This document shows, one piece after another, positions 123-34,031 of a stretch of 34,300 nt of DNA. A model generated the notes under the pieces. That model searched no databases. It saw only the letters and a list, made by a program, of their open reading frames with translations, and was not told the DNA's origin. Within the stretch, counting starts at the first letter, position 1. Each line of letters begins with the position of its first letter. The position numbers and the translations under genes are program-made. This stretch comes from Candidatus Bathyarchaeota archaeon (GTDB lineage Archaea; Thermoproteota; Bathyarchaeia; Bathyarchaeales; Bathyarchaeaceae), in the NCBI GenBank assembly GCA_020348865.1, contig CP070754.1, positions 873,947-908,246 of the forward strand. The letters run 5' to 3'.

Positions 123-710
123 GTGGCTAATGTGTCGGATTTCGTGAAAATAGTCAGTTTGCCTCCTATGAAGGTCGTGTCTTTTCACTCGATGGGAGAA
201 TTCTTGGGTGATCCCGAAGAGAAAGCCAGCACAAAAATGATGGCTTGGGCAAAATCTAAGGGTTTGCTGAGCAATCCTAGAGAGCACCAGGTATTCGGTT
301 TCAACAATCCAGACCCACCAATTAGTGAAGAAGGCATACCTGAACCAAACAAACGATATGGATACGAGTATTGGATAACTGTTGAAGATGATTTCAAGAC
401 AGAAGAGAACATAGATGTCAAAACAGTTGATGGTGGTTCATACGCAGTACTGACCTGCAGAGTCGAGAGCCCTGTTGACATTGGGAAAACCTGGGGAAAA
501 CTCATCAAGTGGATACAGGAGAGCGAAAAGTATGACTTCCATCCAAACTGCAGGGGACTGAAATCCCGTCACAGCAAAAGCCATTTTGAATATGGAATCA
601 CGGGATTGGAACATCATCTCAATCTTTTAGAGAGCCCACCGAAAGGAAAACCGTGGAAAACCCCTGAGAAGCTCGTCATGGACATTTATGTGCCGGTAAT
701 CGAGAAATAG
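123..710 (+). CDS. GyrI-like small-molecule-binding (effector-binding) domain protein
   Basis: 195 aa ORF with the GyrI-like pattern VKIVSLPPMKV...FGFNNP...YGYEYWITV...GGSYAV...W..L..W...MDIYVPV; no DNA-binding domain is attached. Confidence 0.75.
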   Translation: MANVSDFVKIVSLPPMKVVSFHSMGEFLGDPEEKASTKMMAWAKSKGLLSNPREHQVFGFNNPDPPISEEGIPEPNKRYGYEYWITVEDDFKTEENIDVKTVDGGSYAVLTCRVESPVDIGKTWGKLIKWIQESEKYDFHPNCRGLKSRHSKSHFEYGITGLEHHLNLLESPPKGKPWKTPEKLVMDIYVPVIEK

Positions 711-861
711 TCGAGTGTGGCATCTCGCATCGAACAATCTTTGCGTGCGTGCACCCCGTTAGCGGTTCCTTCTGCAAATCCTATCTTGTACGCTTGATTA
801 TGAAAAGAAAAGTTCAAATCGCTCAGCACTGTTCTACACGGCACACGGCAAGTGTTCTTAG

Positions 862-1716
862 ATGAGCAGAGTTAGCATCGTGAAAGGATCAAGCCCGGTT
901 GAAGTGACGGTTGAAGCTCTTGAGATGATAAAGTCAGACGTGGATCACGTTCTCTCCACGTCAAAGCCCGTTTTGATCAAGCCTAACTACATAAACTCAA
1001 AGCACCCTTCAACTGGAATTACCACAGACAGCAGAGTCATTGAAGGAGTCGTCAAGTTTCTGAACCAGCGCAAAACAGAAGATATTATTATTGGTGAAGG
1101 AAGCGGTTGGGGCGACACTTTTGAAGCTTTCAAAGTTGCGGGTGTTGACACGGTTGCTGAACGGTGGGACGTGAGACTTGTCGATCTCAACAAAGACAAT
1201 TTTGTTGAGGTTACCCCGCCTGATCCCTTGTCGCTTAAGAAAGTTAGAGTTGCGGAGACGAGCCTGGAAAGCATCGTGATAAGTGTTCCAAAGCTTAAGC
1301 TTCATAGAATAGCAACCGTCACGTTGGGTCTGAAGAATGTGATGGGTGTTCTGGCTTCTAAAGGGGCTATGCATAGAGGATCCCTCAGCAAGAAGATTGC
1401 TGACCTTGCTTCGGTTGTAAGACCAGGCATCTCGGTTGTCGATGGGATAATTGCAGGGGAAGGGCATGAGACCAGTGGAAAGCCTGTTGAGATGAATTTG
1501 GTCATAGCGGGAACTGATCCTGTAGCGGTTGACGCTGTTGGTGCTTCGGTGATGGGCATATCGCCGATTGATGTCAAACACTTGGTTCTTGCAGAGAAGA
1601 AAGGATTGGGAACATGTGACTTGGAAAAGATAAGTGTGCTGGGAGAGCCGATAGAGAAGGTGAAACGAAAGTTTCACAGATCATTCTCATCAAGACTCCT
1701 GTCTCACATCAGCTAA
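862..1716 (+). CDS. DUF362 domain protein
   Basis: Motifs VLIKPNY, TTDSRVI, IIGEGS, ISVPKLKLH...TLGLKN, DGIIAGEG and DPVAVDA are typical of DUF362. Confidence 0.85.
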   Translation: MSRVSIVKGSSPVEVTVEALEMIKSDVDHVLSTSKPVLIKPNYINSKHPSTGITTDSRVIEGVVKFLNQRKTEDIIIGEGSGWGDTFEAFKVAGVDTVAERWDVRLVDLNKDNFVEVTPPDPLSLKKVRVAETSLESIVISVPKLKLHRIATVTLGLKNVMGVLASKGAMHRGSLSKKIADLASVVRPGISVVDGIIAGEGHETSGKPVEMNLVIAGTDPVAVDAVGASVMGISPIDVKHLVLAEKKGLGTCDLEKISVLGEPIEKVKRKFHRSFSSRLLSHIS

Positions 1717-1837
1717 CATAGACTTGACCGTTGTTTGTTCAACTAGGGTTACAGATTATGTACTGTATGAGGAACTCTTAATAGTGTCAATCTCACTTTG
1801 AGAGACAATTTAAGCCGTAATGAAAGGAGATAACCAC

Positions 1838-2194
1838 ATGGGTCACACCATCTGTCACTTGGAGATTCCCACGACGGATGTAAAAAGATCTGGAGAATTC
1901 TACAAGCAGCTATTCGGTTGGGATATGGATTATGGTTGGGGACCTGACTATGCACTGTTCAACACAGGTGAAGGAGTATTAACTGGTGGAGGCTTCGACA
2001 GGAAGGACAAAATCACACCTGGCAACATAATAATATACATCCAAGCTGACGACATCAACGGAATGCTTGAAAAAGCTGTTAACCTAGGCGCCAAAAAGGT
2101 GAAGGAAAGAACAGAGATTCCAAACGTAGGCTGGTTTGGAATCTTCACCGACCTAGATGGCAACACAATAGGCTTGTTCACTCCTAAGAAATAA
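1838..2194 (+). CDS. VOC family (glyoxalase/bleomycin-resistance-like) protein
   Basis: ICHLEIP...FYKQLFGW...G..FTDLDGNTIGL. ATG 1838 is preferred over 1820 because it follows a GGAG Shine-Dalgarno. Confidence 0.85.
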   Translation: MGHTICHLEIPTTDVKRSGEFYKQLFGWDMDYGWGPDYALFNTGEGVLTGGGFDRKDKITPGNIIIYIQADDINGMLEKAVNLGAKKVKERTEIPNVGWFGIFTDLDGNTIGLFTPKK

Positions 2195-2340
2195 GCAACC
2201 GTGCTTCTTTCCACGCGCAGGAAAGCATACTCCCACATCGTTGTGTAGCTGCATTCTCCGAAGATAAGAGAAGCAGACACCTTCGGTCTCACTCGTTTTG
2301 CTTATTAGTGCGGCTGTTTCGAATCTCGCCTGCGTGTAGC

Positions 2341-2473
2341 CAGTCGCAAGAGGAAAAGTTCATCTGCTGGGTTGCCAGAAACAGTGATGAAGCAGCAGAG
2401 CGATTCGAAGCTGACATTGACTACGTGACTGGCGAATACGGCGACGCAGGTAAAGGCTCAAGAAGAAAAGTGA
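2341..2473 (+). pseudogene. Probable eroded C-terminal tail of a tyrosine recombinase/integrase
   Basis: Translates to QSQEEKFICWVARNSDEAAERFEADIDYVTGEYGDAGK.., followed by a basic tail and a TGA in a shifted frame. This resembles, from memory, the C-terminal motif of bathyarchaeal integrases (F.CKVA.T.EEA..LIEAGFEYVTGEY.DGGK.FRKRK). No catalytic domain is visible upstream. Confidence 0.5.
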
Positions 2474-2499
2474 CGCACTCGGTTGATGTCTACCTCTGT

Positions 2500-2575
2500 G
2501 GGGTCGTGGTCCAGCATGGTCTAAGATTCGCGCTTGGGGTGTGCGAGATCCGGGGTTCAAATCCCCGCGACCCCA
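2500..2575 (+). tRNA. tRNA-Pro(GGG), CCA not encoded
   Basis: Acceptor GGGGTCG/CGACCCC plus discriminator A; anticodon arm CGCGC-TTGGGGT-GTGCG (GGG at 2536-2538); T arm CGGGG-TTCAAAT-CCCCG. Confidence 0.95.
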
Positions 2576-2703
2576 TCACAATATGAGATTAGCAACTGTC
2601 TTGGGCAACGCTTGGATTTTGGAGAAACGGTGCAAAGAGAAGAAATCGAGTTAGTGCATGCATAACGCGCGCGCAGGACTCCTAACCGGAAATCCCCGGA
2701 AAG

Positions 2704-3201
2704 CTATTCACTCCACCAAGGTTCCTCTAGCAATTCAGAAATCTTCTGTCTTAGAGTCTTCTCATTGTTATAGAAACGTTTCGATAATCTCTGCCAGAGC
2801 CATATGGAAGCTTTCTGACCGTCCAATATTACGTCACGAGACCCTGTCTGGGCTGTGATTGCACTATCCCTTACCCTTTTTGCTTCATAGTTATGGTTCT
2901 CTATTTCGAAATGGATGGATGACAATTTTGTTCTCTCGCCATATGAGAGAAGTTTCACATCTCCAGAAGTTATCGTTGAATCCCACATCATTGTTGGCAG
3001 AAGCATCCCTTTTCCTTTCAACAGACTTGCACATTTCTGCAACTCATTCTTCACGGTTGCTCTGAGTTTCTTTCGGTTCTGATTGTCTCTACGCCATTCC
3101 CACCAGCTTCTCAAACCAAATGCTGCAAGGATCCCCAGAAAAGACTCCACGAAGAAGCTCAATATTAGCAATAGGAGTGTTCGGCTTAAAAGCACACGCA
3201 T
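2704..3201 (-). CDS. Hypothetical protein with an N-terminal membrane anchor
   Basis: 165 aa ORF: hydrophobic N-terminus, then a basic/helical soluble domain; divergent from the gene at 3277. Confidence 0.6.
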   Translation of the reverse strand: MRVLLSRTLLLLILSFFVESFLGILAAFGLRSWWEWRRDNQNRKKLRATVKNELQKCASLLKGKGMLLPTMMWDSTITSGDVKLLSYGERTKLSSIHFEIENHNYEAKRVRDSAITAQTGSRDVILDGQKASIWLWQRLSKRFYNNEKTLRQKISELLEEPWWSE

Positions 3202-3276
3202 GATAGCGTTATTGAATATTGTTTCTGAAATCTTAAATGTCTAAATCTCTCATACGATGTGAAGAAGGGAGAAGAA

Positions 3277-4473
3277 ATGAATAGGAAAACCGTTTCTGGA
3301 ATAATGTTAACACTGTTTCTGATAAGCGTAGTGGGCATGGTATTTAATACGCTACGTGCTGTGGAAGCTACATAGGTTTTGTTTGAGGAAGACTTTGAAA
3401 GTTATTCTGTAGGTAGTTTTCCATCTCACAGATTCTATGCCCGATGGGGAGGATGGTGGGTGACAGAGGAGGGTGGCAACAAATTCTTGAGAAGTGTGCC
3501 TCATACTGGTTCAAACTACGACATAATCACGATGCAAAAATTCCCAAGCGACGTAAAGATTGAATTTCTGACAAGACATTCACTTGGGCAGCTTATGTTA
3601 TACATTGCAAATACCCTCGAAGGAACTCCTGGAACATTTTGCTTTGGAATGTGGATCAATGGAACTCATTACAGCATTTATTATCACTGGAATGATGGCG
3701 TCAACTATATCGCTAACTCTAGTGTTCTTGGAACCTTTACAACTCAGCCCAACATCTGGCACAAAGCAAGTATGTCGCTTACAGGGACCCTTGCCGAATT
3801 CTATGTGAACGATTCATTTGTCTTCGAGTACGATATCAGCACAGTTATCCCCTTTCCAGTAGAGAATTTCTTCTTGTACTGGGCGACTTGGGGGCAAAGA
3901 GGCATAGATAACGTAGCAGTTTATAGACAACCAACCATAGTATCAGCTGCAATCGACGTAGACCCTGACACTTTGAGTTTGAGAAGTCAAGGACGATGGA
4001 TTACCGCCTACATTGAGCTTCCAGAAGGCTACAATGTGAGTGACGTTGATGTTTCCTCAATTAAACTAAATGAGACGTTTTCGGTTGATCCTGATGCTCC
4101 CACACAAATCGGAGACTATGATAGTGATGGCATCCCTGATTTGATGGTCAAGTTCAACAGAACTGAATTGACATCCTACCTCTACAATATTCTTGAAGCA
4201 AGGCTGGATACTGTAGTCCTAGCCGTTTCTGGAAATCTCACTGATGGAAGGTTGTTTGAAGGCTCTGAGGTTGTGAGGACCAGGCTTGCTGGAGATGCAA
4301 ACGAAGATTTCGTGGTGGACGTTACTGACCTTTCCATGTTGGGAAGAAGTTATGGAGCAAGGATAGACGAAAGCGCTTACGACGCGAGATTGGATTTGAT
4401 GAGTGATGGAGTCGTTGATGTGCGAGACCTGATGCTAATCTGCATCAATTATGGAGCAACAATACCAGAATAG
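3277..4473 (+). pseudogene. Secreted/surface protein (signal peptide, ConA/LamG-like beta domain, bathyarchaeal repeat domain, C-terminal dockerin-like EF-hand pair) interrupted by an in-frame TAG at 3373-3375
   Basis: ATG 3277 (after GGAG) encodes MNRKTVSGIMLTLFLISVVGMVFNTLRAVEAT*VLFEEDFESY, in frame with ORF 3379-4473. Dockerin-like motifs GDANEDFVVDVTDL and DLMSDGVVDVRDL. Confidence 0.75.
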
Positions 4474-4773
4474 TTTCACGCAAAAAAGGGGGAGTTGCGG
4501 GGGATATCTCCACTCGACTGCGAAATCCGGGAAACCTAGGTACATTTTGACTAAATTCGCATCTTTTTTCATGCTACTTCCGCGTTCTGAAATGGGCTAA
4601 GCCATCGCTGTCTTGCCAACCCTTTCGAAGCGCGCTTCAAGCGTGCATGCTTCAGAGGATTTTTCCAGCACACGCCTATGAAAAGCATGATATCTCAAGC
4701 GAATGCTGAAGACTAATCCCGATTTCTCTGCGAAACTCCTTATTCTCCATCAACTATTGTGTGAGCGAACATG

Positions 4774-5247
4774 TTATGGGAACGTAGGCTCACTCCATCT
4801 TTTCAAGTTCTCTTCACACTTCTTCTTCACAGCTTGGTTTACGCTTCTGTCTCTCAATGTCCTTAGGAATTCCATGCGCTTCTCGACAGCCTTAGTTTCT
4901 CCCATTTCATAGTATAATCTGCCTTCCAAGAAATCTTTCATCTGTTGTGCCTTCTGTATGATGAAACCTGCAGCTTCGATTGGGTCGGCAACCACGTAAC
5001 TGTTTGCCCATATGGTGACTTCTGCTTCGCGAAGCTGGCTTAACCCAGAGATTTCGCGGATTTGCCTGACGTATGTTCGTAGGAAATCATAGAATTCGGC
5101 TGTTTTTATCAACTTCAAAGCTTCTTCTGTTTTGCTCTTGAAGTCTGGGCTTCCGTTCACTTCCAAATCATGCTTGTAGCCTTTCTCTATGAGCTCCATA
5201 GCCTTCTTCACCTCTTGAATAGTGTAGACTCTTTCCGGGAATTTCAT
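4774..5247 (-). CDS. Hypothetical soluble protein
   Basis: 157 aa ORF with a natural Lys/Glu-rich composition; no motif recognised. Confidence 0.7.
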   Translation of the reverse strand: MKFPERVYTIQEVKKAMELIEKGYKHDLEVNGSPDFKSKTEEALKLIKTAEFYDFLRTYVRQIREISGLSQLREAEVTIWANSYVVADPIEAAGFIIQKAQQMKDFLEGRLYYEMGETKAVEKRMEFLRTLRDRSVNQAVKKKCEENLKRWSEPTFP

Positions 5248-5364
5248 TGCGTTCCGTCCATGTGCCGATAGCTAACTATCCAGTCAGTGTACATATTTTT
5301 GTCTCTCATGAAAGTTTTGGAGTAGTGCGTCTGCATGCGATATTGCTTGCAAGCTTATGGTTTG

Positions 5365-5655
5365 CTACAGGTAGTCAACAACTTTGCCTTCTTGGGTGAG
5401 TTTGTAGCTTGTCTTTTCTTTTTTGACTTCCTTCTCTACGCAGAAGCCATACTCCAACACGCTGAGATGCCATTTCAGTGTGTCAATGTCCAAACCAGTG
5501 CTCGATTTGAGTTCTTCTATGGTTTCGCAGCCTTTCTGCAGAGCCCTAAGAATTTTTCTTCTCAAAGGACTGTTGATAGCCCTAAGATATCGCGTGTGGT
5601 ATTCTCTATTTTCCTCAATTGACTTGCCAATTGTCTTTGAGCCTTTATCTGACAA
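5365..5655 (-). CDS. ArsR-like winged helix-turn-helix transcription regulator
   Basis: AINSPLRRKILRAL...TIEELKSSTGLDIDTLKWHLSVLEYG...YKLTQEG is a typical wHTH pattern. Confidence 0.85.
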   Translation of the reverse strand: MSDKGSKTIGKSIEENREYHTRYLRAINSPLRRKILRALQKGCETIEELKSSTGLDIDTLKWHLSVLEYGFCVEKEVKKEKTSYKLTQEGKVVDYL

Positions 5656-5714
5656 GATGCTTCACGATTATAGTACACGTATAGTGTTATCTTTCATATG
5701 AATATTCAGAGTCT

Positions 5715-5749
5715 TATCATCTACGGAATAGGGGCGGTTGTAGATGATA
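5715..5749. promoter_or_regulatory. 10-bp perfect inverted repeat (operator or hairpin)
   Basis: TATCATCTAC-N15-GTAGATGATA, between the polB2 stop and the wHTH gene start. Confidence 0.45.
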
Positions 5750-5825
5750 TTTTCGCTGTTGGAAGGAGAAGAACTGGTTCTGGGGCATCACGGGGGCGAA
5801 GGTGTTGAACCTCACTTCCTGTCTT

Positions 5826-8144
5826 TTATGTTATTGTCGGAATGGTGCTTAACACCATCTGCTTCTCGCCATAAACTAGCTGATTTTTTATCGCTTCTTC
5901 AGTGTATTTGAATTGACTGATAATACTCGCTCCTGCTAGGATCAGCATGTCCATATACTTTTCGACATCAAACAGGTTCTCATCGTTGATTAGTTCTGCA
6001 GCTTTTACACGCTTACTTGGTCTTCTATTTCCAGCATCTGTTATCAAATATCGGACAGTTTGCCCTCCAGAAATCTCTATGCCCTCCTTCATCAATTGTC
6101 TTGCAGCTATAGCTTGAAAAACGTCATGAACATAGTTATCCGGATTCATGGAAAGCCGCTTTGAAATAATCAAATCCTGAAAATCAACGTTGATATCCTT
6201 CAGGTTCTCTAAGTAGCCTCTCAAAATTTCTAGCGATTCAGGGATCCTGTTCAAAAAGCCCTTTGAGTCCTGAGCCTTCGCAAGAACTCTTATCATATCC
6301 ATCTGAGCCTCCCGAATGAAAGGCGGCGTATCTCTCCTTACGGCTTCAATACCCCTCACCTTGATTTCCCCAGAATCAAACACTCCATAGTAACGGTTGA
6401 GAACAGGGACATCAACGTATGTTCTAGAGGGCAAGAAAACAATCCAGCGATATCTACCTTCAACATTCAACTGCACACCAATTTTCTTGGAGACCACTCT
6501 ACAAAGGTCTACGTGTTCTTTTGGCAATGTGTTTTCCTTCTTCAGCCACAAGGAATCAACAATACCATGAACGATTTCGAAACCTCTCTCCTCAGCTATA
6601 CGCACAGCTTCCAGTAGAGCCTCTCTAGCAAAAGCGCAAACCGCAATATGCGCGTCAACTTTGCCGAAACGAGCATTCTTATAACCAAGATAACCAAAAC
6701 AAGTCACCAAAATCCACTTCAAAGCATTCTGCCTATGATTGTAGATTTGTCTTTTTTTCGCGTCTTCAGCCTCATTCCTGAGACGCTTATAGGCGGCTCG
6801 CTTCCTCAGAATCATCTTTAAGGTTCGCGGAACTATGCCCTCACGCTTCTCACAGACATTGTACCCAAGCTCAGGCACCCTCAACTTTGAATCCGGACAA
6901 CATTTGCAAAGGACCGTTTCAGCGGAAATATTCTGCTTCGCCATCAATGTTGGATACATCGATGAAAAATCAACTTCTGCAACTCCATCGTGGATACCCA
7001 GCCGAGGCTCAAATATGAACCCTCCTCTATCCGCTACCAGTAACTCCCAAGCTGACTTGAAAGTTTCAGGCTCCTGTTTCTTCCAAGGGATTAGGATGTC
7101 ATCCTTCGTCGCCTGATAGAGCTGCAAAGAAGACATTATTGTTCCAATTGACGCCCTCGAGGCTCTGTGTAAAGGAAACCTGCAAGTTCTTGAAACCTCG
7201 ATCAACCCATCCAGTCCACAAGCTGAATAAATGAACGTGTTCTTTTCGTCAATATGAATTCGTCCACGCAACCTGCGCATGGGTGCCTTAAAATAAGCTC
7301 TTCCATACGAGAAGAACGTAGTACCACATTTCTTCTCGGCCTTAAGGGGAATGCGCTCTCGTCCCAAAATAAGCCCGTTCAATATTTCGTTTAGCAACGC
7401 CCTGTGAGCCAGATACGGAAAAAGGAACGAGTCTCCTCCACGAGTAAAAATGATGTCCGGGTCCTTCTCTCTGATGGCTTCAACAGTTCTGAGGATCTTT
7501 TCATCTTCCTTTGCATCATCAATGACAATGCTTTCTCTATTACTTCTAAGGGTGATGACCCCGATTGGATCATTGAAGTTAGGGATGGCCTTTTTTTTGG
7601 CTATTTCTATCTGCATCGCCATCAAGCGTAGAGGAGGAAGTGCATAATTCACGCTTTCAACCGATTCCAACAGCCAGTAGGCAAGTCTATCTCCTTGAAT
7701 CGTGACTCCTACAGAAGCAAGCGGAAAAACGTCTCTATCATAGAAGTATGCCTGCGCATATGGGATATCCACGTTATGAAACCTTAACTTCTTACATCCA
7801 CTGGATTTCAGCAACTTTCGGACGAAGTGAGATATCCTACGACAATCTGTGATGGTAACCTCCAAAACCTTTGTCTTCTTGTTTTCCATGAAATCAGCAT
7901 ACTTTCTCACATACCGCCACTTGGCCAAAGACTTGCTCACTGCAAGTTGAGTGGTTAACTTAGACAAATCGCTAATCCGACCTGAAACGTAAATCTTTGG
8001 CTGAAACTTATCCACTAATTTCACGCGTTCTCCATTCTCAGCTATAATCCACACTGTCATTTCGCCAAGATTGGAAGGATATACGTCGAGTAGCCAACCC
8101 TTCAACAGTTTAAGGCTACTCAAGTTGCCTTTCCAACTGCTCAA
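5826..8144 (-). CDS. polB2: Family B DNA polymerase, PolB2 (Dpo2) group, with degenerate proofreading exonuclease
   Basis: Motif A DFSSMYP, motif B KWILVTCFGYLG, motif C HGIVDS (canonical YGDTDS), CKCC...C insert, KVRGIEAVRRD. Exo motifs are eroded (MQIEI; GGDSFLFPYL). The true start may be a downstream TTG (8123 or 8105). Confidence 0.9.
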   Translation of the reverse strand: MSSWKGNLSSLKLLKGWLLDVYPSNLGEMTVWIIAENGERVKLVDKFQPKIYVSGRISDLSKLTTQLAVSKSLAKWRYVRKYADFMENKKTKVLEVTITDCRRISHFVRKLLKSSGCKKLRFHNVDIPYAQAYFYDRDVFPLASVGVTIQGDRLAYWLLESVESVNYALPPLRLMAMQIEIAKKKAIPNFNDPIGVITLRSNRESIVIDDAKEDEKILRTVEAIREKDPDIIFTRGGDSFLFPYLAHRALLNEILNGLILGRERIPLKAEKKCGTTFFSYGRAYFKAPMRRLRGRIHIDEKNTFIYSACGLDGLIEVSRTCRFPLHRASRASIGTIMSSLQLYQATKDDILIPWKKQEPETFKSAWELLVADRGGFIFEPRLGIHDGVAEVDFSSMYPTLMAKQNISAETVLCKCCPDSKLRVPELGYNVCEKREGIVPRTLKMILRKRAAYKRLRNEAEDAKKRQIYNHRQNALKWILVTCFGYLGYKNARFGKVDAHIAVCAFAREALLEAVRIAEERGFEIVHGIVDSLWLKKENTLPKEHVDLCRVVSKKIGVQLNVEGRYRWIVFLPSRTYVDVPVLNRYYGVFDSGEIKVRGIEAVRRDTPPFIREAQMDMIRVLAKAQDSKGFLNRIPESLEILRGYLENLKDINVDFQDLIISKRLSMNPDNYVHDVFQAIAARQLMKEGIEISGGQTVRYLITDAGNRRPSKRVKAAELINDENLFDVEKYMDMLILAGASIISQFKYTEEAIKNQLVYGEKQMVLSTIPTIT

Positions 8145-8379
8145 TTCTCTCTTTAATCTCCGCTAACATCTTTTCGTGATGAAGCAGAATCGACATGAAC
8201 ATAGCTTCAAGCAAAATCGGCCTCGTAGCCATACTTCCCGCTGACGCAAGCATTCTGCAAGCATTCATCATACGATTAAAAGCTTCAGTATCCTTCTTTC
8301 TCATCCCTTTCTTGAAGCCCTTCCACTTCTCAATCTCATTCTCCAACGCTTGACGATATGAAGGAACAGTTTTTCCCAT
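8116..8379 (-). CDS. Small helical PolB2-associated protein (arCOG07300-like)
   Basis: MGKTVPSYR..LE.EI..W..F...MR...AF..M...R......FMSILL pattern; position directly upstream of polB2. Confidence 0.8.
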   Translation of the reverse strand: MGKTVPSYRQALENEIEKWKGFKKGMRKKDTEAFNRMMNACRMLASAGSMATRPILLEAMFMSILLHHEKMLAEIKERIEQLERQLE

Positions 8380-8382
8380 TCA

Positions 8383-9135
8383 TCAATCCTCCAGAAACCT
8401 GTCCATCGTAACCGCGTTAGAATAGAAGTCTACAGCAAACGGCGTTAGGCTCGGATGATACTCCAGAATAAACTTCAGAGCTCCCCGAGACGCCCTCAAC
8501 CTTATAACAGTGCTTGCTCTTCCGAATAAAACTGATTTCAAGAATAGGCTTCTGCTCGAATGGCTCTGATGAAGACATGTGGCAACAATGATTGCTCGTC
8601 TTGTCAAAGCAAGTTCGGAAAGATGATGCGCCATTTTAATGAAGGTTTCTCTGCTCTGATCTTCGGGCACATCTCGATCTTGGAACAATCTAGTTACATC
8701 CGAGATGATCACAAGTTTGGATCTGTACCTTTTCAAAGCCTCCTCCAACTTCTCAAAAATCAACGGAGTCAGCTGATACGCCGTGAATGCCCTAGAAACT
8801 GAGATGTTCTCAAGCGCACGTTTTGGCTCCAAACTATATTTCTGCGCTATCGCTGAAACACTGTATGGATCAAAAGTGTTTCCGCAATCAACGTAAACCG
8901 CTCTACAATTTAGCCCTTCCTTTTTAATAGGCAGTTGACAACGAACACTCAGAAGGAACGAGAGCGTCTTACAGGTTGAATGCCCAAACAAAACCGCTAG
9001 TTTTCCTCTTTGGAAACCTGGAAAGCAATCATCTATCTCTGGGAGACCAAGAGCTAGCAATCCATTGGATTTTTCGGATAATGCAGTTGCGACGCACAAG
9101 GGATATGAACGAATGAATCTACGACTCATAAGCAT
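8383..9135 (-). CDS. Degenerate RadA/RecA-fold ATPase (PolB2-associated)
   Basis: LGLPEIDD, QLP...GL...AVYVDCGNTFDPY, NISVSRAFTAYQL, Walker B LVIISD. Walker A is degenerate (FGHSTCKT) and there is no N-terminal HhH domain. Confidence 0.85.
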   Translation of the reverse strand: MLMSRRFIRSYPLCVATALSEKSNGLLALGLPEIDDCFPGFQRGKLAVLFGHSTCKTLSFLLSVRCQLPIKKEGLNCRAVYVDCGNTFDPYSVSAIAQKYSLEPKRALENISVSRAFTAYQLTPLIFEKLEEALKRYRSKLVIISDVTRLFQDRDVPEDQSRETFIKMAHHLSELALTRRAIIVATCLHQSHSSRSLFLKSVLFGRASTVIRLRASRGALKFILEYHPSLTPFAVDFYSNAVTMDRFLED

Positions 9136-9155
9136 TTGGCAGAAAAATACTCAGG

Positions 9156-9259
9156 AGATTTAGAGACTTGGGTGAAAGTGAACCAATGTTGAAAATGCTC
9201 CACACATCACTAAACCCTAGTGTATGCATGTACATATGACAATCAGTGTTTCAGAAACT
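9156..9259 (-). promoter_or_regulatory. Putative promoter of the radA-like/polB2 operon with DNA-damage-response-like boxes
   Basis: On the minus strand: AGTTTC (9254-9259), ATTTTC (9191-9196), TTCACTTTCA (9173-9182), then a weak TATA-like CTAAAT about 25 nt before the ATG at 9135. Confidence 0.5.
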
Positions 9260-9356
9260 AATGGGATGCGTGCGCGCCTGCAAATCCTGAAGGATGAATC
9301 TAAGGTAGAATATATTGATCGAAATATTCGCTAGTCAAGACAAAAAAGGGAAGGAA

Positions 9357-9899
9357 TTAAGTCTCTTGCTTACTCCCACTGCTTATCCACCAGATAACAA
9401 AGATGCCTGCGGGAATCGCGACAATGAGTAGATCCCAGAGAATTGCTGTTAGCCAAGAATAAACCCAATCATCGAAGCTCCAGCTTTGAAATGGCAAATC
9501 CCATTTCCCATCAAACCACACTACAATCAGCCAAGTTATCAAGTTGAATAGTCCAAATCCGCCACTGCCCTCACTAGCTTTGGATGCACGCATGCGTTCG
9601 TCGTCAAGGAGTTTTCTGTACCATACAACATATACTACAATTACTAGTGGTATTACCCAGCTTCCAACAAAGATAAGTTCCCATAGAATCACATTTAGTA
9701 TGAAAGTGACAACATAGCCTACAGTCCACTCACCAAGCATCATTGGAACGAGCCCCGTTGTTTGTGCATCGGCAACCACCCATAAAAAGGTAAAAACCCC
9801 TGCAATCGTAGCTACTATGCCTGCGCTTATCATTAGCAATGTCGCTTTCCAATGTCTCTTCAAGAAATTCTTCCACACTTTATCGTTGTTTTTCGTCAT
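9357..9899 (-). CDS. Hypothetical multi-pass membrane protein
   Basis: 180 aa, about four hydrophobic Trp-rich segments. Confidence 0.75.
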   Translation of the reverse strand: MTKNNDKVWKNFLKRHWKATLLMISAGIVATIAGVFTFLWVVADAQTTGLVPMMLGEWTVGYVVTFILNVILWELIFVGSWVIPLVIVVYVVWYRKLLDDERMRASKASEGSGGFGLFNLITWLIVVWFDGKWDLPFQSWSFDDWVYSWLTAILWDLLIVAIPAGIFVIWWISSGSKQET

Positions 9900-10009
9900 T
9901 CCAAACGCCTTCTATTCAATCAAGTGTCTTCAAATGGAGAAGCATTCTATGACTTCGCTTTGATTCTTTATAAGGCTTTTCAGTTGAGGCGCGCGTGCCC
10001 GAGAGATTT

Positions 10010-11434
10010 TCACTCGTGTACGAGCCATCTGGGTTTTCCTTCTAGATATTCTGTCAGAAACTTCGCGAATTTGGGGTTGGATGAATACAGTCCTGCAACT
10101 TTTTCATTAACCATGACTTCGAGACTGTTTGGTATGGCTTGAGAAATCAGATGGGCTACGCCAACATGCCTTCCACCGTCTCTCAGTTTCTCGTTTAGCA
10201 GTTCTGCCACATCTGTGTATTCCCGTTTTATTTCTGCAACCCAGCGACTTCCCTCAACGTACGGTCCAGAGATTGTGTGCGATGCTCCAACATGTTTCTC
10301 GAGGAATCTTTTGCATTCTATCCTTTTCCGGATTGGAGGACCAAAATGCTTCTTTACAAGTGGAAGAAAGCGTTGTTCAACCTCGAAGATAAACATGTTT
10401 AGGTCTTCCTCATCCCCCCATGTGACGTCTCGAATAACGTCAAAATCGTTTTGTCGGAGCATTTTGCGCAGCGCCCGTTGGGATTTGTACAGTTGCCCCC
10501 ACAGAATGTCCGAAACCGTTTTCACTCCTCCGAGTTTCACAAAGACAATGGTTGATCCCCGAGTTTTCAAGGTGCTGACTAGGTCTTTGACTTTCAAAGG
10601 GGCGATATAATCTGGGGTAAAGAACCAGGAATCTGGGCGTTGAAGAAAAGCTCTTGATGCAATCACAAATTCATCCAATCTTTCCCTTCTCACTGCTGCC
10701 GCAACATTTCTTCCCTTGTCAACGGGATCTACCAGTACAAGTGGCTCTCCAAAGATCTTTTCCAACTCTCTTTCTCTTCCATCATAATGTTTTTCATAAT
10801 CAATGATTCTTTTTTCCTTCCAGTCTGCTACTGCCTTCAAGATTTTCATGAACGATCCGTAGTTGAGGGTGAGAAGCTCACAGAGGTATCCGCTGAACCC
10901 GCCAACCCTTATTTCCGCCCCATAGACACCGATGCCCTTCATAAATTTCTTCAGGAGCCTAACCTCTCCACGAGTTGTCTCATCGAGGAGAGGCTTCACA
11001 TAATCCGTATGAAATGGAGTTCTATCGGTAGCGCTGATCCACTCACCTCGCTCCACTTGATAGCATGGAACTATATTCACTCGTACACCGTCTACGACAG
11101 ATTCAAGATAGGGATGTTCAGCGAATCTTTCGATCTGTTTGAAACCTTCCGTGGCTTTTCTAGCGATTTCCAAGCAGGTGGTCCCGAAAGATTCGCGTGG
11201 CATGGTAGTTGGCACACGCATGAAAATATCTACGTCGGGCTCCTTGCTTAGCCAAGTATCTTTTGCTACTGACCCCTCAACCCTCACCTTAACATCTAAT
11301 CCAGCTTCTTTAGCTACAACCATCACATTATTTGTCAGCCTGTCGGCTAACTTGAGAGTATTCCTTCTCTCTCTATCGCTTGGAGTGACCTTTCTCAGCA
11401 CATCTGCACAAACTTCTTCAAAGGTTGAGCCCAA
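10010..11434 (-). CDS. cca: Archaeal (class I) CCA-adding enzyme
   Basis: GSVAKDTWL..PDVDIF, AEHPY, SATDRTPFH, YGAE..VGGFSGYLCELL, DPVD..RNVAAA. Start moved to TTG 11434 (GGTGA Shine-Dalgarno) to avoid overlap with thpR. Confidence 0.95.
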   Translation of the reverse strand: MGSTFEEVCADVLRKVTPSDRERRNTLKLADRLTNNVMVVAKEAGLDVKVRVEGSVAKDTWLSKEPDVDIFMRVPTTMPRESFGTTCLEIARKATEGFKQIERFAEHPYLESVVDGVRVNIVPCYQVERGEWISATDRTPFHTDYVKPLLDETTRGEVRLLKKFMKGIGVYGAEIRVGGFSGYLCELLTLNYGSFMKILKAVADWKEKRIIDYEKHYDGRERELEKIFGEPLVLVDPVDKGRNVAAAVRRERLDEFVIASRAFLQRPDSWFFTPDYIAPLKVKDLVSTLKTRGSTIVFVKLGGVKTVSDILWGQLYKSQRALRKMLRQNDFDVIRDVTWGDEEDLNMFIFEVEQRFLPLVKKHFGPPIRKRIECKRFLEKHVGASHTISGPYVEGSRWVAEIKREYTDVAELLNEKLRDGGRHVGVAHLISQAIPNSLEVMVNEKVAGLYSSNPKFAKFLTEYLEGKPRWLVHE

Positions 11435-32807: not shown

Positions 32808-34031
32808 ATGCCAGCGAATCTTCCTGCAGAGGCAAAGCACAAATGGAGTGAAGTTGCATCAGCGAAAACGCCTCAGGAAAAGCTTCGCACGCTCAAAGAG
32901 TTTTTGAGTTTAGTTCCGAAACACAAAGGCACGGCTCGCCTTCGTGCTCAAGCAAAACGCCAAATCGCCTCTCTGCGAAGAGAAATCGAAGAGAGAAAGC
33001 AGAGAAAAATCGGGAAGGGCGGACCAAGATTCTTCATAGAGAAAGAAGGCGCAGCACAGATTGCGATTCTGGGTCCAACGAACGTAGGTCGAAGCAGCTT
33101 GTTAGCTTCGATAACCAACGCAAAGGTTGTGGTTTCAGGCTATCCATTTACGACACTTGAACCTGTGCCAGGCATGTTTCAATATGAAAATCTGCAGTTT
33201 CAGATGGTCGAAGCCCCTCCGTTGATGAAAGGTTCAGCCGATGGAGAAGCGTGGGGTCCACAAACGTTAGCATTGGCTCGTAACGCTGACGGATTGATAT
33301 TGATGGTAGATCTATCACGAAGACCTTGCAGACAACTGTCTCTGATCCTGGGTGAACTGGAAAAAGCGAAGATTCTAACTCAGAAACCTCGCGCACGAGT
33401 AGACATCGCAAGAAGACACATGAACGTAGGTCTGAAAATCCTTGTGCTAGGACGACTAGTCAACTGTACTGTGAGGGATGTAGAACAACTGCTGAGAAGC
33501 TATCGAATCTCAGACGGAATAGTGAAGATCTACGGAAAAGCCACATTAAATGATGTGGAAGATGCCATCTTCGAAAGTACCGTGTATCGTCCTGCAATAG
33601 TCGTTGCCAACAAGGCAGACGCTCCCAATGCAATTGCAGAGACGAAGGAATTGTTTAGTCGCACTAGCAATCGGATGAAAAGTATCCAGATTTCCTGTAA
33701 GAACCGGACTGGCTTGGAAGATTTAGGAGTAGAGCTGTTCAGAGTGTTGAACATAATCCGTGTCTACACGAAGGAGCCAAACAAGAAAAAGCCCTCTTCA
33801 AAACCGTTCATCCTGAAGAAAGGAGCTACGGTTCAAGATTTGGCAAAACAGATTCATAGCGACTTTTACCGACAGTTCAGTTATGCGAAGGTGTGGGCTA
33901 ATCCTCCTCAAAAAGGTGAAGGCGCAAAAAAGACGCCTAGAGCGAAAAGACGTTTTTCTTTCAGTCCACAGAAAGTGGGCTTGAGCTTTCCCCTGGAAGA
34001 CGGTGACATTATAGAACTGCACATAAAATAG
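32808..34031 (+). CDS. OBG-family DRG-type GTPase with a C-terminal TGS domain
   Basis: MPANLP, PKHKGT, G1 GPTNVGRSSL, G2 YPFTT, G4 NKAD, IRVYTK, IHSDF, LEDGDIIELH. Confidence 0.9.
   Translation: MPANLPAEAKHKWSEVASAKTPQEKLRTLKEFLSLVPKHKGTARLRAQAKRQIASLRREIEERKQRKIGKGGPRFFIEKEGAAQIAILGPTNVGRSSLLASITNAKVVVSGYPFTTLEPVPGMFQYENLQFQMVEAPPLMKGSADGEAWGPQTLALARNADGLILMVDLSRRPCRQLSLILGELEKAKILTQKPRARVDIARRHMNVGLKILVLGRLVNCTVRDVEQLLRSYRISDGIVKIYGKATLNDVEDAIFESTVYRPAIVVANKADAPNAIAETKELFSRTSNRMKSIQISCKNRTGLEDLGVELFRVLNIIRVYTKEPNKKKPSSKPFILKKGATVQDLAKQIHSDFYRQFSYAKVWANPPQKGEGAKKTPRAKRRFSFSPQKVGLSFPLEDGDIIELHIK

Follow-up and report, generated by a model that had tools for sequence, protein, structure and literature searches.

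The genes for the family B DNA polymerase PolB2 are associated with genes of the family arCOG07300 and of an inactivated RadA, and Makarova, Krupovic and Koonin predicted in 2014 that the three products form a complex (PMC4104785). Timinskas, Timinskas and Venclovas (2025) named the two partner proteins PPB2 and iRadA and modelled the "PolB2 mutasome" in 40 heteropentamers composed of PolB2, iRadA and three PPB2 subunits (PMC11791011). The hallmarks given there include an 'MGRT' arm of PPB2 with Arg3 and Arg9, an iRadA-binding loop of PolB2 that resembles the Rad51 oligomerisation motif and is followed by a D(K/R) motif, and clamp-binding motifs located in either iRadA or PolB2; component fusions are described there, too. 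In the supplement of this study, the word 'Bathyarchaeota' occurs 364 times, the rows listed contain operons of group 1a (gene order iRadA-PPB2-PolB2), two of them with HGIVDSLWL, and a Bathyarchaeum complex model is given with a ranking score of 0.914. Here we analyse a 34,300-nt stretch of the genome of a Candidatus Bathyarchaeota archaeon (contig CP070754.1 of assembly GCA_020348865.1, positions 873,947 to 908,246; "the window" below), which bears three such genes on its minus strand at 5826..9135. They are in all likelihood a Bathyarchaeia copy of the published operon, with PolB2 as a non-proofreading repair polymerase served by two helper proteins. The system has already been described, this phylum included, and only the promoter module reported below goes beyond the published work. 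An initial annotation of the window had proposed a damage-tolerance complex of PolB2, a pseudo-RadA and a small protein, and had treated the association of the genes as known. Both points agree with the literature, and the hallmarks are present, but the idea of the complex is not new, since the AlphaFold mutasome study covers Bathyarchaeota.

Dpo2 of Saccharolobus islandicus is the only member of the PolB2 group with enzymology. It lacks proofreading and the first Asp of motif C, and was characterized by Feng et al. (2022) as an active, exonuclease-free mismatch or lesion extender that acts in translesion synthesis (PMC8764526); a term search of the text of that paper found no mention of partner proteins. 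A review from 2026 calls Dpo2 damage-inducible and mutagenic, just as the initial annotation had it, and states that the mutasome prediction awaits experimental verification (PMC13324097). Our literature search likewise found no biochemical study of a PolB2-PPB2-iRadA complex, in agreement with what had been presumed. The Sulfolobales enzyme is regulated through Orc1-2 and the ANTTTC element (PMC6061795), and its exonuclease domain is structurally decayed (PMC11791011), whereas the 772-residue protein of Bathyarchaeia aligns with solved polymerases over most of its length. The mutasome study also draws a comparison to E. coli Pol V (UmuD'2C-RecA-ATP), in which an error-prone polymerase, a small oligomeric partner and one RecA-family subunit come together as well (PMC11791011). 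Pol V differs in that its polymerase belongs to the Y family and its RecA is active and filament-derived; homology to the PolB2 mutasome is limited to the RecA fold. ImuA-ImuB-DnaE2 combines an inactive RecA-like subunit with the Y-family-like adaptor ImuB and the error-prone C-family polymerase DnaE2. The operon in the window does not belong to this system, as its polymerase is of family B and its PPB2 is a three-helix bundle rather than a Y-family pseudo-polymerase. Because none of the Imu families is present, the likeness to ImuABC put forward in the initial annotation holds in outline as an analogy but not as family membership, the published comparison being the one with Pol V.

The three open reading frames are co-oriented in the order iRadA-PPB2-PolB2 (Table 1). 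As had been noticed at first reading, they are tightly coupled: iRadA and PPB2 are separated by 3 nt (8380-8382), and PPB2 and PolB2 overlap by 29 nt (8116-8144). All hallmarks that we looked for were found, namely a PolB2 with degenerate exonuclease motifs and characteristic motifs A and C, the PPB2 arm, the iRadA core, the adjacency of the genes and a predicted iRadA docking site. Compared with group 1a of the PolB2 mutasomes, the families, their order and coupling, the IVD of motif C, the PPB2 arm and the FxxA and D(K/R) motifs are the same, the PIP-like iRadA tail is a candidate for the clamp-binding motif, and there is no essential difference; PPB2 has Lys rather than Arg at position 3 (MGKT), as do 6 of 12 aligned relatives. 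The string HGIVDSLWL listed for Bathyarchaeota operons is found in the PolB2 of the window, too. Neither the promoter module nor its presence at radA and at a Y-family polymerase operon appears in the sections of PMC11791011 considered here. The genome is assembled in one contig (1.50 Mb, 92% complete) and also encodes PolD, a second PolB, two Y-family polymerases, RadA, a RadB-like protein and one PCNA.

Table 1. Features of the iRadA-PPB2-PolB2 operon and its promoter (window coordinates unless a contig is named)
Feature	Coordinates	Strand	Details and basis
iRadA, RadA/Rad51 ATPase-core paralog with degenerate P-loop and shortened L2 loop, without N-terminal domain	8383..9135	-	250 aa, ATG start as listed; Pfam Rad51
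PPB2 (arCOG07300), three-helix protein with free N-terminal arm MGKTVPSYR	8116..8379	-	87 aa, ATG start
PolB2, DNA polymerase of family B, exonuclease motifs dead, motif C reading HGIVDS	5826..8144	-	772 aa, TTG start
PolB2 motif A, DFSSMYP, residues 392-398, catalytic Asp392 retained	6951..6971	-	alignment; D392 invariant
PolB2 motif C, HGIVDS, residues 526-531, first Asp replaced by Ile, second Asp retained	6552..6569	-	alignment; H526, G527, I528 and D530 invariant in 58
PolB2 residues 350-375, ILIPWKKQEPETFKSAWELLVADRGG, FxxA-type motif followed by D(K/R) motif, predicted iRadA docking site	7020..7097	-	conservation and complex model
iRadA SRAFT patch, residues 114-118, predicted pocket side of the PolB2 contact	8782..8796	-	invariant in 65/65
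iRadA C-terminal tail AVTMDRFLED, PIP-like candidate PCNA-binding motif	8386..8415	-	sequence pattern
Promoter box 1, TTCACTTTCAC	9172..9182	-	upstream of iRadA
Promoter box 2, GTCTCT	9162..9167	-	promoter alignment
TATA-like box CTTATGAG, 47 nt on from the start of box 1, aligned with TTTAAA of sister promoters	9125..9132	-	alignment of 14 promoters
Five promoters of the module	window 9125-9182; G000:C1:712137-712198, 33823-33882, 382699-382759, 984104-984163	-; +, -, -, +	

Since the listed ATG at 9135 falls within the TATA-like box of the conserved promoter described below, translation of iRadA probably begins instead at an in-frame TTG, at 9099. A start at 9099 also fits the low confidence of the first 20 residues in the structure model (predicted local distance difference test, pLDDT, below 50) and a stop codon in the equivalent 5' stretch of one relative.

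PolB2 matches Pfam DNA_pol_B (E = 2.6e-36) and, weakly, DNA_pol_B_exo1 (2.5e-07). Its best NCBIfam match is NF004418 (5.5e-120), under the family cut-off, and all other NCBIfam matches of the operon lie below their cut-offs as well. We read the motifs against the solved polymerase 5mdn_A (E = 2.1e-58) and the second PolB of the genome; the alignment with solved family B polymerases runs from the N-terminal region to the thumb. The exonuclease motifs have eroded, with QIE for DIE in Exo I, FL for FD in Exo II and the Tyr of Exo III gone, and motif C is altered at its first Asp, as the initial annotation had recognized along with the survival of the motif A Asp and of the second Asp of motif C. 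These two residues, D392 and D530, and the Lys of motif B (K476) are invariant in 58 of 58 aligned homologs from Bathyarchaeia that are 48-75% identical to the window copy, which fits selection for catalysis. The rest of motif B (KWILVTCFG) has lost the usual Asn and Tyr, and the KKRY motif reads LNRY; because both depart from active family B polymerases, activity is not assured. Motifs A and B are separated by a stretch with a cluster of invariant Cys residues (C413, C415, C416 and C431; 6843-6908, minus strand), which may bind a metal or form a disulfide pair. The second PolB, which lies outside the window (G000:C1:1128000-1131916, minus strand), has the canonical motif C YGDTDS. Its reading frame switches about 50 residues past this motif, and the thumb is encoded in another frame that ends with ...GLTKLERFM, due to either a frameshift or an assembly indel.

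PolB2 could in principle be a dead polymerase that, along with its two partners, plays a structural or regulatory part at stalled forks or origins, which was the reading of 2014 (PMC4104785). The lost first Asp of motif C, the substitutions in motif B and at KKRY, and the degeneration of every exonuclease motif speak for it. We regard this as unlikely, as Dpo2 of S. islandicus, a robust polymerase, has a motif C of this kind as well (IID; PMC8764526, PMC11791011), and as D392, K476 and D530 have been kept without exception at the identities given above. A non-proofreading polymerase that is probably still capable of synthesis is the reading that we follow.

The RecA-fold protein iRadA matches Pfam Rad51 (1.8e-19) over residues 40-173 only and has no N-terminal helix-hairpin-helix (HhH) domain. 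Aligned with the genome's own RadA, it again lacks the N-terminal domain, its L2 loop is shorter by 8 residues, and a stretch FGHSTCKT (residues 50-57) takes the place of the Walker A sequence GAYGSGKS. The broken Walker A and the missing HhH domain had been noted before, and the Pfam span and the RadA alignment bear this out. As a caveat to the loss of ATPase residues, K56 and T57 are still present in the window protein, and 64/65 share an SD pair at the position of Walker B. The columns of K56 and T57 contain Lys in 7/65 and Thr in 6/65 relatives, so the P-loop is under no selection. The AlphaFold2 (AF2) model of iRadA (pLDDT 88.3) retrieves RAD51 and RadA chains with Foldseek (E ~1e-17, TMq 0.73-0.79). 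The C-terminal tail is probably flexible because of its low pLDDT. It fits the pattern xxx[LM]xxF[LM] and resembles the end of the genome's second PolB, and the last 12 residues of 50/65 iRadA proteins contain [ST][LMIV]xx[FY]. In the supplement of Timinskas et al., the sequence EVTLLDFL at the same place in Bathyarchaeum iRadA was scored as a weak PCNA motif (PMC11791011).

The docking site of iRadA on PolB2 is predicted from both conservation and modelling. In PolB2, K363 and D372, R373, G374 and G375 are invariant in the 58 homologs, F362, S364 and A365 are at least 90% conserved, and the complete FKSA (residues 362-365) is present in 50/58. The multimer modelling that the initial annotation had suggested as a check was run for PolB2 (residues 1-745) with iRadA, each partner being supplied as an alignment that we had built ourselves. 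The median ipSAE was 0.73 versus 0.00 for the best of three controls, where ipSAE is the model's own confidence. Of 157 solved complexes 116 attain a mark of this kind, as do 2 of 215 mismatched pairs, a calibration that is only rough with alignments of our own. Three runs shared at least 95% of the contacts, and the pLDDT of the partner was at least 79. The confident interface comprises PolB2 residues 355-366, 368-369, 489-490 and 496 and iRadA residues 80-81, 88-93, 105, 108-125, 129, 133, 137 and 155. It places FKSA of PolB2 on the SRAFT patch of iRadA, as described in PMC11791011, and the prediction lends in-silico support to binding of PolB2 and iRadA to each other.

PPB2 has no match in our local copies of Pfam and NCBIfam. 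A search returned 398 relatives, and all 120 among the matches listed carry the precomputed assignment PF26485.1, a family absent from the local Pfam copy. Residues M1, G2, T4, V5, S7, Y8 and R9 are invariant, and position 3 is Lys or Arg, in 13/13 aligned sequences. In the AF2 model, the N-terminal arm is free and is followed by three helices (8-24, 28-46 and 52-86). Comparison of this model with 48,161 PDB representatives gave generic helical matches, the best with Z 7.8 and rmsd 2.7 over 78 residues; the sigma-factor likeness reported in PMC11791011 was not among the best 50 structural matches listed.

Furthermore, the operon is preceded by a conserved promoter module. Of 64 Bathyarchaeia loci, 38 contain the word ACTTTCA no more than 330 nt upstream of the iRadA core, versus 5/64 for its reverse complement and 0-6/64 for three shuffled words (background 0.048 per 330 nt). 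The layout of the module is ACTTTCAC - N4-6 - (G/C)TCTC - (T)GTCGTT-like box - TATA at +47, and judging from the promoter alignment, CTTATGAG would be the TATA box in the window. In this genome, radA has the element as well, 219 nt upstream. A genome-wide search with the composite pattern ACTTTCAY-N2-8-STCYC gave 9 sites, and the reversed pattern gave 2. The sites of the forward pattern stand upstream of the PolB2 operon, radA, a gene for a 110-aa protein, glyA, a pair of small zinc-finger genes (64 and 59 aa) and an operon that encodes a 66-aa zinc-finger protein, a 222-aa protein and a Y-family polymerase (PolY); the remaining three have no nearby downstream gene, two of these lying inside listed open reading frames. 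An earlier intergenic search with the exact 11-mer and 8-mer had missed the radA and PolY sites, which were masked by spurious open reading frames.

Five related genomes contain 24 sites of the composite pattern versus 19 of the reversed control. In these genomes the pattern precedes the homolog of the 64-aa gene in 5/5 cases, radA in two, the PolB2 operon in two and the 110-aa gene in one. A profile built only from 9 sites in these five other genomes recovered in our genome the promoters of the 64-aa zinc-finger gene (6e-7), the 110-aa gene (3e-6), radA (1e-3), the zinc-finger/222-aa/PolY operon (2e-3) and the PolB2 operon (0.044), followed by a sixth hit at E 0.56; the PolY operon site has no ortholog in the training set. 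The glyA promoter was rejected as a member, because it fits the loose pattern but not the full profile. No similarity was detected among the small zinc-finger proteins of the candidate regulon. Identity of the module with the damage element of Sulfolobus is unproven, as only the hexamer ANTTTC is common to both and the spacing to the second box and the position relative to TATA differ. Our search of open-access papers and bioRxiv found no description of this promoter module or of a damage regulon in Bathyarchaeia.

The promoter sequences are good evidence that a small set of genes is co-regulated, with three recombination or damage-tolerance units among them. As its promoter module is common to radA and the Y-family polymerase operon, the PolB2 operon probably belongs to a small repair regulon. 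That the module defines a compact DNA-repair regulon of Bathyarchaeia consisting of the PolB2 mutasome, radA, the PolY operon and small zinc-finger and other proteins, which a regulator would switch upon DNA damage, is a plausible proposal that we make only tentatively. Perhaps this candidate regulon is distantly related to the Orc1-2/ANTTTC system.

In structure comparisons iRadA matches RAD51 chains best, and several of these come from RAD51-paralog complexes. Together with the promoter link to radA, this could also point to a recombination-coupled polymerase, in which iRadA, in the manner of a Rad51 paralog, would recruit PolB2 to RadA filaments or D-loops to carry out repair synthesis. This is quite improbable. 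iRadA lacks the N-terminal domain and linker that bear the oligomerisation motif of RadA, and its pocket is predicted to be filled by FKSA of PolB2; PolB2 modelled with active RadA scores poorly (ranking score 0.28, PMC11791011); and the module precedes the Y-family polymerase operon, too, which fits damage tolerance equally well.

PPB2 is encoded in 16 of 41 genomes of the same order (the window genome counted), in 12 of 24 of the family and in 2 of 4 others of the genus. Of 12 loci in the same family or order, 11 keep the arrangement iRadA-PPB2-PolB2 (nine with intact PolB2, one with truncated PolB2 and one with an in-frame stop); the twelfth has iRadA and PPB2 only. These variants are an iRadA-PPB2 pair without adjoining PolB2 (L024, 7367-8363), a PolB2 truncated at 509 aa, before motif C (L023, 8660-10189), and a PolB2 broken by a single in-frame stop (L027, 6548-8848). 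A scan of GTDB genomes revealed 206 stretches encoding relatives, and the following counts refer to the best 80 loci, all from Bathyarchaeia. iRadA is located just upstream of PPB2 in 67/80 and PolB2 just downstream in 70/80; 8 of the 10 loci without PolB2 have less than 2.3 kb of contig left. The trio is not universal, as iRadA could not be detected within 4.5 kb in 12 of the 80. That the three genes are co-regulated without any stable complex, as these twelve loci and the relative with the iRadA-PPB2 pair but no PolB2 could suggest, is very improbable, given that the reading frames abut or overlap, the gene order is conserved, the interface motifs are invariant on both partners, the PolB2-iRadA prediction passed its controls and fusions of components are reported (PMC11791011).

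The loci without iRadA form a subgroup of Bathyarchaeia (L072, L076, L080, L081, L088, L091, L096, L109, L111, L119, L120 and L122). Their PPB2 is mostly 88 aa long, their PolB2, where found, is ~50% identical to the window PolB2, and the open reading frames upstream of PPB2 fail to match the iRadA profile. L119 and L122 have no PolB2 match either, and that of L076 covers only 184 aa. One related genome bin (G009) contains three copies of PPB2 on three contigs (C100, C128 and C5), due to either several operons or mixed strains.

Synteny with four genomes of the same genus extends from the gene of the CCA-adding enzyme (10010) rightwards to 18295 and is broken left of 10010, so the operon sits in a variable region. 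This placement agrees with published accounts of a distribution that is patchy and transfer-prone. The variable region (window 123-10010) also holds a tRNA-Pro gene (2499-2577), a gene for a dockerin-domain protein and an ArsR-type helix-turn-helix (HTH) gene. Just downstream of PolB2, a 96-aa winged-helix protein is encoded at 5365-5655 (minus strand), with weak matches to HTH_20/ArsR and to regulators of Sulfolobus plasmids (pRN, ORF80 family); relatives do not have it next to their operons. The flanking HTH, 157-aa, membrane protein and CCA-enzyme genes stand beside the operon in none of the 12 family or order loci and none of the 80 Bathyarchaeia loci.

The PolB2 mutasome may work as follows. 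PolB2, with proofreading lost and the residues for synthesis kept, would most likely extend primers past lesions or mismatches, by analogy with Dpo2, which likewise lacks the first Asp of motif C. iRadA would be an ATPase-dead RadA core that cannot form filaments; it is predicted to dock on the FKSA motif of PolB2, an FxxA motif similar to that of Rad51 oligomerisation, and its flexible C-terminal tail would probably tether the complex to PCNA. PPB2, a helical protein of small size and a trimer in the published models, could insert its invariant N-terminal arm between PolB2, iRadA and DNA. Transcription of the operon would start from the promoter module common to radA and the Y-family polymerase operon and may respond to DNA damage.

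Several observations weigh against this reading. Besides the divergent motif B and LNRY of PolB2 and the loci without iRadA, the C-terminus of PolB2 carries only a weak Q..L..IP motif, and the predicted contact between PolB2 and iRadA may lean on the solved Rad51-Rad51 and BRC-Rad51 interfaces. The PolB2 operon is the weakest of the five profile hits, and damage induction is suggested through guilt by association, the promoter sharing only ANTTTC with the Sulfolobus element.

The window copy is a clean and intact example of the PolB2 mutasome operon and no new kind of system. It sharply defines candidate contact residues, namely F362 and A365 of PolB2 versus S114-T118 of iRadA, the PPB2 arm and the iRadA tail. 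In many archaea and some bacteria, this operon may encode the main machine for error-prone damage tolerance. The promoter link to radA and the Y-family polymerase provides a handle on the regulation of DNA repair in an uncultured archaeal phylum and, if the proposed regulon is real, it would be a damage-response network outside the Sulfolobales.

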